Source: Candidatus Acidiferrales bacterium (lineage in GTDB: Bacteria > Acidobacteriota > Terriglobia > Acidiferrales > UBA7541). From it: a stretch of 58,980 nucleotides of DNA. Positions 1 through 50,602 of this stretch are shown one piece after another. The stretch is from NCBI GenBank assembly GCA_050011035.1, contig JBEKJW010000008.1, positions 1-58,980 on the forward strand, in the 5' to 3' direction. The stretch's first letter is position 1; each line of letters begins with the position of its first letter. The notes beneath the pieces are model-generated. The model was not told where the DNA came from. It searched no databases and worked only from the letters and a program-made list of their open reading frames with translations. The position numbers and the translations under genes are program-made.

Positions 1-1850
1 TAGAAGCCGGTGAAATTGAAAAAGCCGAGCGTGCCGTTGTTGCCGGAGTAGTAGGTGTTGATACGCTGGCGGAAGTACTGGAAGCCAACCTTCACGGTGT
101 GTTTCCCGTGGGTAATGCTGAGGTTGTCTTCATACTGGAAAACAGTGTCGTGGAAGAGCTGAACCACGTTGTTTCCGCCGATGCCGGTGACCGTGCCGCC
201 GGTGACTTCGAATTGAAGCAGGCCGGGACCGGTAGAGTTGCCGTTGGGAATGCCGAGCGTCGTACCTAGATCGCCGAGTGACGCGGGCGTTATCGAATTG
301 TTGGTGTTGAGCGCGACGTAATTGGCGCCCGCGCGGAACTCGTTGGTCACGTTCGGCGAGATGAAGTGGACCCAGTTGATGACGCCGCTACGAATCGTGA
401 CGACGCCCGGATTCAGCGGGAGAATCGCGACCGAGTTGGTGTCCGGATTGTCCTGATGTTCTTCCGAATAGCGGAAGAAAATCCGGTCCGAGGGGCGAAT
501 GTTCCAATCGATCTTCCCGTCGCCCTGGTCCGCGTTCAGCGCGCTATTGGTAACCTGGGAAGCGTTGTTCTGAAGACCGGAACTGTTCGGCTGCGGGTAA
601 TACGACGAAGCAAAGAGATTTGCCATCACGGGGTCGATCGTGAAGCCCGCATTGGCAAGGTTGTTGAAGGGTACCGGTGTCGGGACTTTGTTCTGAGCCG
701 TGCCCGGAACATCCACCTGTCCGACGATTTGGTTTGGGGTAGTTGTGCTATAGCAGGTGCCAGCCGCGTTAAATGCGCCGCCCGCCTGACCGCAAATCGC
801 GCCGAAGTCTCCGCCGCGTTCCGCCGTAGTGAAGACGTTCCACGGGCTCGTTGTGCTGGGGTGGTCGAATCGCTGGCCTTCGTAGTCGCCGAAGAAGAAG
901 AGCTTGTCCTTCTTGATCGGGCCGCCGAGAGTGCCGCCGAACTGGTTCCAGCGGAGTGCCGGCTTTGCGAGTACGGGGTCGCCAGGAAGGTTAGGCTGCG
1001 TTGTCATGCCGTTGGCCCAGGTGTTTGCGTTCAGCGCATCGTTGCGGAAGAACTCGAAGATGTCACCGTGGAACTGGTTGGTGCCGGATTTGATCGAGGC
1101 GCTAATGATACCGCCTTCGAAGTTGCCGAACTCGGCCGACGCGTTCTGCGTGATCATGTTGAATTCTTCGATCGCGTCCGGGCTCGGGGTGTATCCGACG
1201 AGGTTGTCTGAAACCTGGTTGTTGTCCATGCCGTCGAGCAGGAAGTTGTTGGATTGCTCGCGGTTGCCGTTGATGTAGGGACGACCGGCGCTATCAATGC
1301 GCTGCGCGGTGTTGAGAGTGGAAGGATCCGGGTGAACGCTGCCTGGCGCGAGAAGAGTGAGCTGAATGTAATTACGGCTGGCCAACGGCAGGTTAACGAT
1401 GGTATTGGAGTCGATCAGGGTGCTCAGCTGCGTGGTATCGGTCTGCAGGATCGGGGCCTCGGAGGTCACTTCCACCGTCTGCGAAACCTGTCCGACTTGC
1501 ATCGCAACGTCAATGCGAGCGGTCTGGTTGAGCACGAGCGTGAAGGGCGAGTGAAGAGCGGTCTGGAAACCCTTGGCTTCGACTTTCAGCGTATAGGTTC
1601 CGATGGGAATGTGCAGCAGGTTGTAGAAACCCGCCTCGTTGGTCTGATCCGTGTATACGGTGCCGCGCGCGGTATCGGTCGCGGTGACTGTCGCGCCGAC
1701 GACGGCGGCGCCCGAGGGGTCCGTCACGATTCCGTTGACGACCGCCGAGACTTCCTGGCTCATGGCTGGCGGTGCAATCGCAAGAACCGTCGCGATCCCC
1801 AAGAACGAAAGCAAAATCGCGAGGGTCGTTAAACGACACTGAATTTTCAC
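1..1850 (-). CDS. TonB-dependent outer-membrane receptor with N-terminal carboxypeptidase-regulatory-like domain (C-terminal part lies beyond the window edge)
   Basis: Not in the ORF track because it runs off the left edge. My minus-strand translation from GTG at 1850 (GGAGG 5 nt upstream) gives VKIQCRLTTLAILLSFLGIATVLAIAPPAMSQEVSAVVNGIVTDPSGAAVVGATVTATDTARGTVYTDQTNEAGFYNLLHIPIGTYTLKVEAKGFQ...VEVTSEAPILQTDTTQLS...NGNREQSNNFLLDGMDNN. This is a signal peptide, a CarboxypepD_reg fold and a plug-like region typical of Acidobacterial TBDRs. The frame stays open to position 1. Confidence 0.85.
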   Translation of the reverse strand, partial: MKIQCRLTTLAILLSFLGIATVLAIAPPAMSQEVSAVVNGIVTDPSGAAVVGATVTATDTARGTVYTDQTNEAGFYNLLHIPIGTYTLKVEAKGFQTALHSPFTLVLNQTARIDVAMQVGQVSQTVEVTSEAPILQTDTTQLSTLIDSNTIVNLPLASRNYIQLTLLAPGSVHPDPSTLNTAQRIDSAGRPYINGNREQSNNFLLDGMDNNQVSDNLVGYTPSPDAIEEFNMITQNASAEFGNFEGGIISASIKSGTNQFHGDIFEFFRNDALNANTWANGMTTQPNLPGDPVLAKPALRWNQFGGTLGGPIKKDKLFFFGDYEGQRFDHPSTTSPWNVFTTAERGGDFGAICGQAGGAFNAAGTCYSTTTPNQIVGQVDVPGTAQNKVPTPVPFNNLANAGFTIDPVMANLFASSYYPQPNSSGLQNNASQVTNSALNADQGDGKIDWNIRPSDRIFFRYSEEHQDNPDTNSVAILPLNPGVVTIRSGVINWVHFISPNVTNEFRAGANYVALNTNNSITPASLGDLGTTLGIPNGNSTGPGLLQFEVTGGTVTGIGGNNVVQLFHDTVFQYEDNLSITHGKHTVKVGFQYFRQRINTYYSGNNGTLGFFNFTGF

Positions 1851-1927
1851 AAATGCCTCCTGGAAATAGCCGACGAGCGCCCGAGAAAACACGCGCACGC
1901 CGCCACACCACCCGTTTCTGCAGAAGA

Positions 1928-47248: not shown

Positions 47249-48931
47249 TTACATGCCTTCGTAGTTTGGTCCCCCGCCACCCTCCGGCGGAACCCAATCA
47301 ATGATCTGATACGGGTCGGCAATATCACACGTCTTGCAGTGCACGCAGTTGGTCGCGTTGATCTTCAGTTTTTTCGAGCCGTCTTTATCGAGCGTCATTT
47401 CATACACCGCGGCGGGACAGAAATACTGGCACGGGTTGCCGTACTCGCGGACGCAGCGATCGCTACAGATGCTCGGATCGAGCACGTGCAAGTGCGGCGG
47501 CTGATCTTCGTCGTGGCGCGTTCCCGAATGATAGACGTCGGTTAGGCGGTCAAACGTGAGCTTGCCATCGCCTTTGAATCGGGTCGATTGATCGACGAGC
47601 GTGTCAGGGCGATTGAGCTTGTTGTAGTCGAGATAGCCGGCCTTGGTGTGCATCGGATCGACGAGGCCGCGACCGCCGCTGACGAATTGAAGGCCCGAAA
47701 GAAAGAGCCCCTTCCACAAGCCGCCGTGAAAGGCCTGGTGGAAATTGCGAACCTCCCAGAGTTCGTCGCGCAACCAGCTTTTGTCGAGTTTGCGTTTGTA
47801 GGCAGAGAGCTTTTGCGCCGACGCATCGCCCGCGACGAGCGATTCGTAAGTCGTTTCGGCGGCGAGCATGCCGCTTTTGATCGCGGTGTGAATTCCCTTC
47901 AGCCGCTGCGAATTCAGAACGCTTGCGGAGTCGCCGACGATGAGCGCGCCATCGACGTACGTGCAGGGCATGGAATACCAGCCACCGTAAGGAAGCGACT
48001 TCGCACCGTAGCGGACCAGCTTGCCGCCTTCGAGAATGTCTTTCACGAACGGATGCGTTTTGTATTGCTGGAACGCGGCGTGCGGATCGAACAGCGGATC
48101 GGCGTATTCGAGCGAGACGACCAGGCCGAGCGACACGCGATTGTTCTGCATGCCGTAGACCCATCCGCCGCCGTAATAGTTGGTCGCAAGCGGCCAGCCG
48201 AGAGTGTGGGCCGTAAATCCTGTTTTGATTTTTCCCGGCTGCACCTCCCACAGTTCTTTCACGCCGATGCCGTAAACCTGCGGGTTCATCCCATCGAGAT
48301 TCAGGTGCTCGACCAGTTTCTTGCTGAGCGAGCCGCGCGTGCCTTCGGCGAGCACTGTGATTTTTGCGCGCAGCTCGTAGCCCGACGTGAAGTTGTCTTT
48401 CTGTTTGCCGTGCTTGTCGATGCCCTTGTCCTCGGTGAGAACTCCGGCGACGCCCTCGGTCGAGCCGCGCTTTTCGTAGAGCAGTTCGGCGCCGGCGAAT
48501 TGCGTGAAGATGTTCACGCCTTTGGCTTCGACGAGACCACCCAGCCATTTCACCATCCGGTTGAGCGACACCACGTAGTTGCCGTGGTTTTGGAGAGGCG
48601 GCGGGGTGATCGGCAGTTTGTAGCTCGACTTTTCGGTGAAGAAGTACGCGGCATCGTCGGTGACTTGCGCATCGAGCGGCGCCGATTTTTCGAAATCGGG
48701 AACCAGTTCGCGCAGTCCGCGCGGATCCATGATCGCGCCGGAAAGCTGGTGCGCGCCGACTTCGCGTCCCTTTTCGAGGACGTAAATATTTTCGGTGGAG
48801 AGGGCGGGAGACTTTTTGGCGGCGTTATGAGCTTCGATGAGATTCGAGAGATGGAGGGCGCAGGACAGGCCTGCGGGGCCGGCTCCGATGATCAGTACGT
48901 CGGCTTCCAGTTGTTCGCGTTCAATGGCCAT
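47249..48931 (-). CDS. Electron-transfer flavoprotein:ubiquinone oxidoreductase (ETF-QO)
   Basis: MAIEREQLEADVLIIGAGPAGLS (FAD fold) and the C-terminal 4Fe-4S region CVHCKTCDIADPYQIIDWVPPEGGGGPNYEGM. Start set at the ATG at 48931. The track ORF's extra 106 aa read through a repeat element. Confidence 0.92.
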   Translation of the reverse strand: MAIEREQLEADVLIIGAGPAGLSCALHLSNLIEAHNAAKKSPALSTENIYVLEKGREVGAHQLSGAIMDPRGLRELVPDFEKSAPLDAQVTDDAAYFFTEKSSYKLPITPPPLQNHGNYVVSLNRMVKWLGGLVEAKGVNIFTQFAGAELLYEKRGSTEGVAGVLTEDKGIDKHGKQKDNFTSGYELRAKITVLAEGTRGSLSKKLVEHLNLDGMNPQVYGIGVKELWEVQPGKIKTGFTAHTLGWPLATNYYGGGWVYGMQNNRVSLGLVVSLEYADPLFDPHAAFQQYKTHPFVKDILEGGKLVRYGAKSLPYGGWYSMPCTYVDGALIVGDSASVLNSQRLKGIHTAIKSGMLAAETTYESLVAGDASAQKLSAYKRKLDKSWLRDELWEVRNFHQAFHGGLWKGLFLSGLQFVSGGRGLVDPMHTKAGYLDYNKLNRPDTLVDQSTRFKGDGKLTFDRLTDVYHSGTRHDEDQPPHLHVLDPSICSDRCVREYGNPCQYFCPAAVYEMTLDKDGSKKLKINATNCVHCKTCDIADPYQIIDWVPPEGGGGPNYEGM

Positions 48932-48980
48932 GGCCCACAGACTACCAGCGGAATCGGCAATTTGGAGGCTGAATTTGTGT

Positions 48981-49057
48981 CGATTAGAACCGGGTGCGGG
49001 TCTTTGTTTTGTGTGAGTTACGGGCGTTTCTAATCGCATCGAGTATCGATTAGAAAT
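48981..49057. repeat. Three-arm palindromic repeat element, copy A (CGATTAGAAC - 35 nt - GTTTCTAATCG - 10 nt - CGATTAGAAAT)
   Basis: Read directly. Arm spacing is identical to copy B. The internal spacer shares TTTGTTTT and AGTTAC. Confidence 0.85.
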
Positions 49058-49256
49058 GGCGGGGCGGCGAGTGCGCGCACAGTTTATTGCGGAAGGGTTT
49101 AGGTTGCGCAGCCAGGAATCTCCGCGCTGAACTGCCTGCGCGGAGGCAAAACCGGCGAAGTGGCTACCCCACGTCACGCGCAGGCTGAAATCTACGGTAC
49201 GAGATTTGTGGGCGCTGCGCTTGTGATCGGTAATCGACGTGTGTGTCATCTAGTGC

Positions 49257-49333
49257 CGATTAGAACGCACCTCCTTCGTTTGTTTTCTGGAAGTTACACC
49301 GGTTTCTAATCGTACGAGATGTCGATTAGAAAT
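49257..49333. repeat. Three-arm palindromic repeat element, copy B
   Basis: Same arms at 49257-49266, 49302-49312 and 49323-49333, 276 nt to the right of copy A. Confidence 0.85.
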
Positions 49334-49618
49334 TCGCCCGGAGATCAATTTGCGGGAGAAACGTACGTATGAATACGGATGAATGGTCTGGGCGAGATTG
49401 GGCGTCGTGCCGGGAGTGGTGCGTCCGTCGGCTTGAGTGAAGTGGCCGCGTCGCATACGGTTTCGTTGTGGGGGCTCTACTTAGCCCCGACTCACGTTAC
49501 CACAACGGTAACTAGTTGTAAAGAGAATAGTGCGAATTTCTAAACGGGAATGGGGCCCACAGACTGACAGTCCATGTTACAGCGCCCGCTTCGCGAGCGC
49601 CTGAGCGTGGAACGGGAG

Positions 49619-50602
49619 CTAGTGGGGCTTTTCGAGTTCTTCGACCAGGGCGGGGACGATTTCGAAGAGGTCGCCTACCACGCCGTAGTCGGCGATTTCG
49701 AAAATCGGGGCGTTCTGGTCTTTGTTGATGGCGGCGATGGTGCGGGCGCCTTTCATGCCGACGACGTGCTGGATGGCGCCGCTGATGCCAAGGGCGAAGT
49801 AGAGCTTGGGCGCGACAGTCTGGCCGGAGCTGCCGATCTGGCGGTCCATGGGGAGCCAGCCTTCGTCGCAGATCGGGCGCGAGGCGCAGAGTTCGCCGCC
49901 CATGGCTTTGGCGAGTTTTTCGGCGAGCGGAATATTTTCCGGCGCTTTGATGCCGCGGCCAACGCTGACAAGGATCGGGCTTTGCGTGAGGTCGACGGCT
50001 TGCTTGGCTTCGCGGAAAAGCTCGCCGGGCTTAGTGCGAATTTGCTCGGGCTTCAGGTCGACGGCGGCGGGCTTCACGGGCGCTTTGCCGCCGGCGTGCT
50101 TTTTTGCGAGGTCGGCACGGAAGGCGCTGGCCTGAAACGTGGCGATCCAGGGCGCGTCTCCGGCGAACACGACGTCGGCGACGGTGCGGCCCTGAAACAT
50201 CTGGCGGACGAAGGTGAGCTTTCCGCCCTCTTCCCGATACGAGGTGCAATCGCCGATCATTCCCTTCCCAAGCGACGCGGCGAGAGCGGGCGCGAAGTCG
50301 CGGACTTGATAGGTGTGTGGGAAAAGGACGAGGTCGGGCTTGCTCACTTCGATAATTTGCTTGAGCGCGATGGAAAAGCCGTCGGGAGTGTAGTTCGCGA
50401 GCAGGTCGTGTTCGACGAGAAGCACTTCGTCGAGATGGTAGCCGGCGAGTTCGTCGGCGAGAGCACCGACGCCTTTGCCGATGACGACGGCGGTGACAGT
50501 GCCTTTAGTCTGCTCGGCGATTTGCTGCGCGGCGGCGACGATCTCGAAGCTGACTTTGTTCCACTTGGCGTCGCGCTGTTCGGTGATGGCAAGAATTTTC
50601 AT
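49619..50602 (-). CDS. etfA: Electron transfer flavoprotein alpha subunit
   Basis: [20 protein letters not shown]... and the C-terminal FAD-binding region [53 protein letters not shown]. Confidence 0.93.

Follow-up and report, generated by a model that had tools for sequence, protein, structure and literature searches.

A polar three-box repeat module nested in the gap between etfA and the ETF-QO gene of a Candidatus Acidiferrales bacterium

The gap between etfA and the ETF-QO gene

The stretch of DNA analyzed here (58,980 nt, hereafter the window) comes from contig C8 of a 5.07-Mb draft genome with 428 contigs and 59.7% GC. In the window the gene for ETF-ubiquinone oxidoreductase (ETF-QO; 47249-48931, minus strand, ATG at 48931) is separated from etfA (49619-50602, minus strand) by a gap of 687 nt (48932-49618). 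Pfam matches identified the flanking genes as ETF-QO (Fer4_ETF_QO 3e-41, ETFQO_UQ-bd 6e-35), EtfA (ETF 1e-40, ETF_alpha 5e-34) and EtfB; the ETF-QO gene and etfA flank the element described below and are not part of it. The N-terminus of ETF-QO aligns with its relatives from residue 1, and the open reading frame 47249-49249 exceeds this true start by 106 codons. An earlier note on this DNA had called both this extension and a 68-aa open reading frame at 49250-49456, which reads ...SNRH, artefacts of a repeat, and we came to the same result. Since the repeat creates false reading frames (the 106 extra ETF-QO codons and the 'SNRH' peptides) and breaks MAG contigs, recognizing it improves gene calls across a large set of uncultured soil Acidobacteria.

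Two copies of a three-arm architecture had been reported in the gap, and the sequence matches this description base for base. In copy A the arms are CGATTAGAAC (48981-48990), GTTTCTAATCG (49026-49036) after 35 nt, and CGATTAGAAAT (49047-49057) after another 10 nt; copy B has the same layout, with arms at 49257-49266, 49302-49312 and 49323-49333. In both copies the middle arm and the right one are perfect inverted repeats of each other over 10 bp, around a 10-nt loop, and the left and middle arms pair over 9 bp (11/12 in copy A); the two alternative pairings claimed for the middle arm, with the right or the left one and on either strand, are indeed possible. The similarity noted between the spacers was also found, as TTTGTTTT and AGTTAC are common to A and B. 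The number of box 9-mers expected by chance is 0.29 for the window and about 18 for the genome; six were counted in the window, a number reached in 0/100 shuffles, and 111 in the genome. When the whole genome was scanned for X-N30-44-rc(X)-N6-13-X, where X could be any 9-mer, the three-box family alone was returned.

Read along the plus strand, the gap is built of several parts. It begins with a 17-mer, GGCCCACAGACTACCAG (48932-48948), which together with the first 17 nt of a REP-like element (49554-49570) makes a direct repeat near the edges of the composite, with 15 of 17 bases matching and a spacing of 622; the 17-mer may be half a REP, or else a duplicated stretch bordering the inserted composite. 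Module A (~97 nt, 48962-49058) includes the upstream box region from -19 and has its left box at 48981-48989, its inverted middle box at 49028-49036 and its right box at 49047-49055, followed by AT; the spacer carries TTTGTTTT and GAGTTAC, and the loop is 10 nt. The body of unit A (49059-49237) is homologous to the sequence that follows modules on contigs C151, C3 and C205, apart from a private insert of 42 nt (49119-49160) with the hairpin CTCCGCGC-N10-GCGCGGAG, which is specific to the window. Module B (49238-49334), of the subfamily 'CATCTAGTG / CGAGATGT', has its boxes at 49257-49265 (left), 49304-49312 (middle) and 49323-49331 (right), and is followed by a linker (49335-49383) in common with units on C65, C370 and C97. 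Then comes a structured block of ~170 nt (49384-49553). Two small hairpins pointed out earlier, GGGGCT-N6-AGCCCC near 49471-49488 and GTTACC-N5-GGTAAC at 49496-49512, are both present and lie inside this conserved block, which also has a terminal hairpin, UUUC-N6-GGGAA. The sequence ATTTCTAAACG (49536-49546) was considered as an extra partial arm and rejected, as it is part of this conserved terminal hairpin. The last part is the REP-like double hairpin (49554-49612; CACAGACTG-A-CAGTCCATG, then TTACAGCGCC-loop-GGCGCT-type), a member of another dispersed family, present in 41 copies in this genome.

The right-hand ~600 nt of the composite have a paralogue on contig C151; it begins inside module A, at the start of the contig, runs through the REP-like element and stops right after it. 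In the closest relative, G004 (EtfA 93% identical), the distance from the etfA stop to the ETF-QO start is 46 nt, with no arms, and in more distant relatives with the same gene order the gap is about 44-170 nt. Altogether, the module is missing from the etf junction in 8/8 relatives that keep the gene order. The 687-nt gap is thus a lineage-specific nest of repeats consisting of module A, module B, the ~170-nt block and the REP-like hairpin pair. It illustrates that ~640 nt of nested repeats can come to lie between two genes at a conserved junction of a respiratory operon.

Anatomy of the module and variation of its boxes

The dimensions of the module were pooled from 164 copies, in which its length is 72-76 nt, the left-to-middle spacer 37-38 nt and the loop 8-11 nt. 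The arms CGATTAGAA / TTCTAATCG / CGATTAGAA define a polar module of ~100 nt, and conservation throughout the family spans -19 to +3 around it. The 5' part consists of an A-tract (-19 to -16), TTTT (-8 to -5), NTNN and the left box CGATTAGAA. After this box follow 13 variable nucleotides, TTTGTTTT, GAGTTAC (its TT is present in 160/164 copies) and the inverted box (A)TTTCTAATCG. The loop ends in the same NTNN that precedes the left box, its last four nucleotides matching those before that box, and leads into the right box CGATTAGAAAT. In the closed genome G016 we found 34 paralogous matches from -25 to +2, ~100 nt, and in most of these copies the homology stops there. A coding role of the module was considered and rejected: the box sequences are invariant at the nucleotide level, and the lengths of spacer and loop vary, which breaks the reading frames.

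The boxes hardly vary among 46 spacer clusters, and the right box (plus AT) is the most constant part of the module. In a few lineages T>G / A>C changes in the left box are matched by changes in the middle box, sometimes in the right box too, and these are compensatory; whole lineages, on the other hand, lose end pairs, as the last two bases of the middle box are CC, AA or TT without compensation and the middle/right pairing goes down to 7-8/9 pairs. Watson-Crick covariation inside the spacer was looked for and not found. This pattern of box variation favors recognition by a sequence-specific protein over a simple helix.

A different kind of covariation was observed between the two direct boxes. 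The 4 nt that precede the left box vary together with the 4 nt that precede the right one, and they do so by identity: when each of the 46 spacer clusters is represented by one copy, matches are found at 100 of 138 variable positions, as compared to 47.2 +/- 5.2 in permutations (maximum 71 in 5000), and all four bases are identical in 20/46 representatives against 2.4 expected. Pairing of the 4 nt before the left box with the start of the loop was rejected as an explanation, since 64/184 positions are complementary, which is about chance. A target-site duplication was likewise rejected, as the upstream region is conserved among copies at different loci. In G016 the direct repeat extends to about 23 nt, and for this reason box 1 looks like a decayed version of the middle-box end, loop and right box. 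Three ideas may account for the identity: the module may be ~1.3 turns of a 66-nt unit, the two boxes may have a crossover-type region in common, or a single template may be copied into both.

Occurrence, placement and inheritance

With one mismatch per arm allowed, the genome holds 32 modules of 74-75 nt, all of them intergenic (32/32) and usually in gaps of 0.5-1.5 kb. This genome-wide count had been proposed in the earlier note, together with the statement that TTCTAATCG-type repeats are scattered in Acidobacteria. The statement was borne out by an exact-pattern scan of one genome per prokaryote species, in which at least 120 loci were found, nearly all of them in Candidatus Acidiferrales, Acidobacteriota or Terriglobia MAGs among the matches listed. 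We further compared 31 relatives, 19 of the same genus and 12 from nine other genera of the order. The exact pattern was present in 14/19 genomes of the genus (0-45 copies) and in 0/12 of those from the other genera; with up to 3 mismatches, 18/19 genomes of the genus had about 1-45 copies, for example 44 in G015 and 19 in G004. A search of viral contigs gave 0 matches to the full module pattern, and three matches to the 30-bp palindrome were discarded as low-GC and unrelated. A literature search turned up neither the motif in a relevant context nor an account of such repeats in Acidobacteria. The three-box module is thus a small genomic repeat, so far undescribed, that is widespread in one genus of an abundant, uncultured lineage of soil Acidobacteria. 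Its scattering through the genus also shows that it is a genomic repeat, rather than a regulator made for the etf operon.

At the 32 modules every combination of flanking-gene orientations was seen, with no orientation bias. Modules within 3 kb of each other are arranged head-to-tail in 19/19 cases, at 105-414 nt from start to start, and neighbors are mostly from different subfamilies; inverted pairs were 0/19. An apparent pair of opposite orientation at L034 proved to be one module that has an additional inverted box. Modules and downstream sequences occur in varying combinations: a given downstream sequence follows different modules, a given module precedes different downstream sequences, and the break points lie at the right box.

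Inheritance could be followed at an ABC-F locus, where an orthologous module lies upstream of the gene in G002, G005, G007 and G008. The boxes have decayed in three of these four species; seven other species, G004 among them, lack this module, and G000 has modules of another subfamily. A decayed module is also found on contig C50. The comparison of the etf gaps, the C151 paralogue, the ABC-F locus and the C50 copy together indicate insertion, vertical inheritance and decay. As judged from these sequence comparisons, the module is a mobile, or at least an expendable, repeat and not an operon-specific regulator.

We surveyed the neighbors of the module by clustering 1170 ORFs within 2.5 kb of modules at 148 loci. 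No transposase or recombinase recurred among them, nor was an autonomous insertion sequence with the module's ends found at these 148 loci; the recurrent neighbors belong only to large paralogous families (ABC-F ATPases, ADOP permeases, histidine kinases and TonB receptors). As multi-copy insertion sequences are often lost from MAG assemblies, an autonomous partner may be missing from the data. The ends of the unit (-25 to +2) are not inverted copies of each other, as terminal inverted repeats would be. No target-site duplication was visible at 20 copies in G016. The relatives are only ~73-75% identical in DNA and their intergenic DNA does not align, nor did any empty site align closely enough to give the junctions. 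With a view to a site-specific recombination site of the res, dif, lox or att type, in which inverted arms surround a 6-8-bp crossover region, the segment from the middle box through the loop to the right box is a palindrome of 10+8-11+10, and no recombinase was found linked to it.

Downstream polarity and interpretation

By iterative nhmmer searches and alignment we found 20 copies of the ~170-nt block in this genome, each of which lies 3' of a module, intact or remnant, and is oriented like it. The block begins ~10 nt past the right box in four subfamilies, and elsewhere after a linker of 40-160 nt, which in many copies is unrelated and sometimes has a REP-like insert. Its consensus fold (RNAalifold) has 34 pairs, seven of which are changed on both sides, and its energy is -25.2 kcal/mol forward, -17.8 in reverse and -11.3 +/- 2.6 for shuffled columns. 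This strand preference was also seen in the mean single-sequence MFE (-58.5 forward and -43.9 kcal/mol in reverse), and several invariant G-U pairs would turn into A-C mismatches on the opposite strand. A 54-aa ORF over the block was rejected as a gene, being frameshifted or without a start codon in the paralogues. A scan against Rfam 15 (E<=1, 48500-50000) gave no covariance-model match, and ARAGORN reported no tRNA or tmRNA. The downstream sequences differ in other species. In 14/158 copies an array of 4-11 GTGNNNN heptads starts exactly 5 nt past the right box, with one array upstream, none on the complement and a genome background of 0.8 per Mb. These polar features suggest that RNA may be made rightwards from, or through, the module. 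Given the polarity of the structured block, any transcript of the nested repeats in the window, if made, would run antisense to the etf operon.

The earlier note regarded the repeat as a REP/MITE-like structured element. The dispersed and structured nature of the element stands; it fails, however, the defining tests for a MITE and for REP/RAYT, as well as those for known RNA families and a sigma-70 promoter. In our reading the module is probably, though by no means certainly, a non-autonomous, protein-recognized, polar mobile repeat that accumulates head-to-tail. The comparisons show it to behave as a small non-autonomous mobile element: it has reached anywhere from a few to ~45 intergenic sites in a genome and diversifies into subfamilies, a copy is inherited at its site and then decays, and copies pile up head-to-tail beside other copies and other repeats. 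In this lineage such a pile has filled the etfA/ETF-QO junction, which is normally ~46 nt. The ATTAGAA-core boxes are most likely recognition sites for one sequence-specific trans-acting protein, as the boxes are near-invariant, their surroundings drift, and their spacing and polarity are fixed; candidates are a protein of the recombinase or transposase type, or a DNA/RNA-binding host factor. Insertion would be orientation-specific and favor existing copies, and the adjacent block may be transcribed on the plus strand, antisense to the etf operon. An effect on the expression of etfBA/ETF-QO, if any, would be incidental, through uncoupling, insulation or antisense interference, and any insulation of the operon would be a by-product of insertion. 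A point against this mobile-repeat reading is that in its simple form it does not predict the identity covariation of the boxes. Neither this identity nor the phased GTG heptads are accounted for by classical REP or MITE models, and both signatures may mark a new way of copying or using small repeats.

The strict downstream polarity and the fixed starts at +5 and +10 are fitted at least as well by a portable promoter/operator cassette for a family of non-coding RNA genes, a reading that we find doubtful on balance but worth serious thought. The inverted middle and right boxes would here overlap the -35/-10 region (TTCTAA-N15-18-TAGAAA) and bind a dimeric regulator, the 8-11-nt loop giving a promoter spacer of 15-18 nt, and the left box and T-tract would serve as upstream sites. 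Transcription would start 5-10 nt past the right box and yield the 170-nt block in this genome, GUG-heptad RNAs or other blocks in other species, with tandem modules as sibling RNA genes. Such a cassette would suit the position of the block ~10 nt past the right box in four subfamilies, always on the one strand on which it folds better (-25.2 vs -17.8 kcal/mol), and that of the heptad arrays, exactly 5 nt past the box in 14 copies from many species; it would also suit the high conservation of the right box plus AT and the exchange of module/downstream combinations with break points at that box. The REP-like hairpin, often found after the block, could act as terminator or stabilizer. A sigma-70 consensus scan of 48850-49700 returned 0 sites, with a consensus that may not fit Acidobacteria, and TTCTAA-N17-TAGAAA matches the sigma-70 hexamers at 3/6 and 4/6 positions with the -7 T missing. 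A terminator scan of the locus found none. Many copies of the block stand behind the unrelated linker of 40-160 nt, sometimes with its REP-like insert, and copy numbers go from 0 to about 45 between sister species while orthologous copies decay, all of which speaks against a cassette. A related and clearly unlikely view is that the module is a self-contained portable control unit, in which two identical boxes are required and from which strand-specific non-coding RNAs are launched, namely GUG-heptad 'sponge'-like RNAs and the 170-nt block. Both boxes would be read by the same element-specific partner or be regenerated from one template in each round of copying, and the module would accordingly amount to ~1.3 turns of the 66-nt unit. 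If true, the genus would seed regulated antisense/decoy RNAs genome-wide, the etf operon included.

Mobilization by a RAYT (Y1 HUH transposase), as for a REP/REPIN-type element, or by another single-strand hairpin-dependent system (IS200/IS605 or relaxase-oriT type) that acts on the middle-right hairpin, would surprise us. The genome does have four Y1_Tnp genes, modules often lie beside genuine REP-like elements, and a hairpin with an adjacent conserved box, the lack of terminal inverted repeats and of a visible target-site duplication, the polarity and the head-to-tail arrays are all HUH-like. The boxes CGATTAGAA / TTCTAATCG, however, carry no GTAG or CGTC tag, whereas the other repeat family in the gap carries GTAA or GTAG, and the RAYT-like Y1 gene on contig C308, next to a module, is flanked by inverted GCGCTCAGACTCGAAAGTCTAAGCTAC hairpins of a different, GTAG-type repeat and not by three-box modules. 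Y1 genes are moreover present in module-free genera, their numbers do not track module copy number, and the hairpin is imperfect in whole lineages. An insulator role within the etfB-etfA-(gap)-ETF-QO unit is not supported. Least credible of all is the attenuator that had been proposed for this unit, a cis-acting RNA switch in the etfB-etfA-ETF-QO transcript whose middle arm pairs alternately with the left or the right arm; we give it hardly any chance. Both helices can form on either strand, and the compensatory T>G / A>C changes in a few lineages agree with it. Yet the junction is without arms in the closest and in more distant relatives, the 32 loci show no orientation relation to genes, orthologous copies decay, the middle-box end is unpaired in whole lineages (7-8/9 pairs), single-sequence folding energies of the modules are ordinary (z-scores 0 to -2.3), Rfam gives no match, and the downstream polarity is antisense to the operon. 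The attenuator thus appears largely refuted already by the comparative data.

Among known systems, REP/BIME elements and the REPINs with their RAYTs (Enterobacteria, Pseudomonas) are likewise short intergenic palindromic repeats in tens to hundreds of copies, which form mosaics with other repeats, vary in copy number among relatives and depend on a presumed trans-acting protein. The three-box module differs by lacking the GTAG/CGTC tag, by its polar direct-inverted-direct boxes with a conserved 38-nt spacer, and in that the repeats on either side of the RAYT-like gene are those of another, genuine REP-like family of the same genome. MITEs such as the Correia elements (Neisseria) are also small and non-autonomous, can occur within operons and have an A/T-rich center that may contain promoters or host-factor sites, but their defining terminal inverted repeats, target-site duplications and parent insertion sequence were not found for the module. 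Its likeness to BOX (boxA-boxB-boxC, Streptococcus pneumoniae) and ERIC/RUP elements lies in the modular build, both having a conserved module of ~50-100 nt with variable or optional blocks, an intergenic location and structured RNA-like parts; the three-box module has instead three copies of one 9-mer at fixed spacing and direct boxes that co-vary by identity. We know of no sequence relation between it and the BOX/ERIC/RUP elements.

The Sin/beta res sites, relaxase oriT and IS200/IS605 ends resemble the module in their strand polarity and in a pair of sites for protein binding, putative in the module, that lie ~66 bp apart: only one of the two is a complete inverted repeat, the other having just the proximal arm, and a bendable A/T tract separates them. 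In contrast to these, the module is linked to no recombinase, relaxase or transposase gene, and a true res or oriT site would be hazardous if present dozens of times in a chromosome. Sibling sRNA genes (RsmX/Y/Z with the GacA box) resemble the modules in their upstream palindrome, variable RNA body, head-to-tail tandems and repeated short RNA motifs, here the GUG heptads of some species; module copy number is, however, far higher and patchy, and module copies decay and insert into an operon. The near-invariant 9-mer in a fixed three-box geometry across the genus points to a putative sequence-specific protein, on which the 30-bp site may offer a handle.

Structured sequences downstream of the three-box module

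The three-box module, a polar dispersed repeat of about 100 nt with left, inverted middle and right boxes, is followed at several loci by further ordered sequence. Downstream of the two window copies, a conserved structured block of about 170 nt (window 49384-49553) is found, as it is at 19 other sites in the genome; its helices are rich in G-U pairs, and its terminal hairpin has the form UUUC-N6-GGGAA. The block is nearly restricted to the lineage of this genome, with one full copy elsewhere, at L008. No Rfam match was obtained for the block, which is a candidate for a new non-coding RNA.

At other module loci (L003, L006, L042, L045, L047, L077, L081, L085-L087, L095, L107, L110 and L114) arrays of 4-11 GTGNNNN heptads (GTGATTC GTGAGTA ...) lie 3' of the module, starting 5 nt past its right box. 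These arrays are strand-specific and present across many species, and their 7-nt period suggests a binding array for single-stranded nucleic acid (RNA).

The REP-like family and the RAYT-like gene

Just 3' of the 170-nt block we often found a member of a second dispersed family (contigs C8, C65, C115, C140, C151 and C308), a REP-like double hairpin of the form GCACAGACT-N3-5-AGTCTATGTTACAGCGCGC-N4-GCGCGCC, located in the window at 49554-49612. The family has 41 sites in the genome (e.g. C19:25511, C79:10862 and C151:584). On contig C308 a RAYT-like Y1 transposase gene (1276-1880, minus strand) has inverted hairpins of the GTAG type (GTAGCTTAGACTTTCGAGTCTGAGC...) on both flanks (about 1110-1180 and 1905-1990); these hairpins represent a variant of this family. 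A three-box module and a block directly adjoin the same gene, without flanking it.

Variant and partial modules

Unit A, module A with its downstream body, contains a 42-nt segment (window 49119-49160) with the hairpin CTCCGCGC-N10-GCGCGGAG. Since the segment is missing from the paralogue on C151, it is a small secondary insertion. A separate subfamily has the spacer (AAAACAAA ... GTAAAC) inverted relative to the boxes, and occurs at L034:6728-6860 and in 12 copies in the closest relative, G004 (e.g. C1:127607-127682 and C4:732455-732530 of that genome). Put another way, the full hairpin site comes first, at the left, and one inverted box follows to its right, an arrangement that looks as if the stretch from the left to the middle box had been inverted or the unit circularly permuted. 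Solo boxes, TGCTGCGAAAGTTG-CGATTAGAAAT, were seen about 290 nt 3' of a full module at C3:9768 and C205:1587, where other loci carry a second module; these could be remnants or half sites.

Effects on annotation and taxon labels

One minus frame of the repeat is open, at window 47249-49249 and 49250-49456 (minus strand), and thereby adds 106 spurious codons at the N-terminal end of ETF-QO and yields a spurious ORF of 68 aa. Automatic annotation is likely to go astray at all loci of this kind. Exact modules were also present in MAGs recorded as Candidatus Aquilonibacter sp. (DATJOL01, with many copies) and as Dormiibacterota (DATNKB01), at loci L010, L013, L023, L027, L033, L035, L048, L060, L065, L071, L103, L111 and L119; these records look doubtful in either their taxonomic label or their binning.
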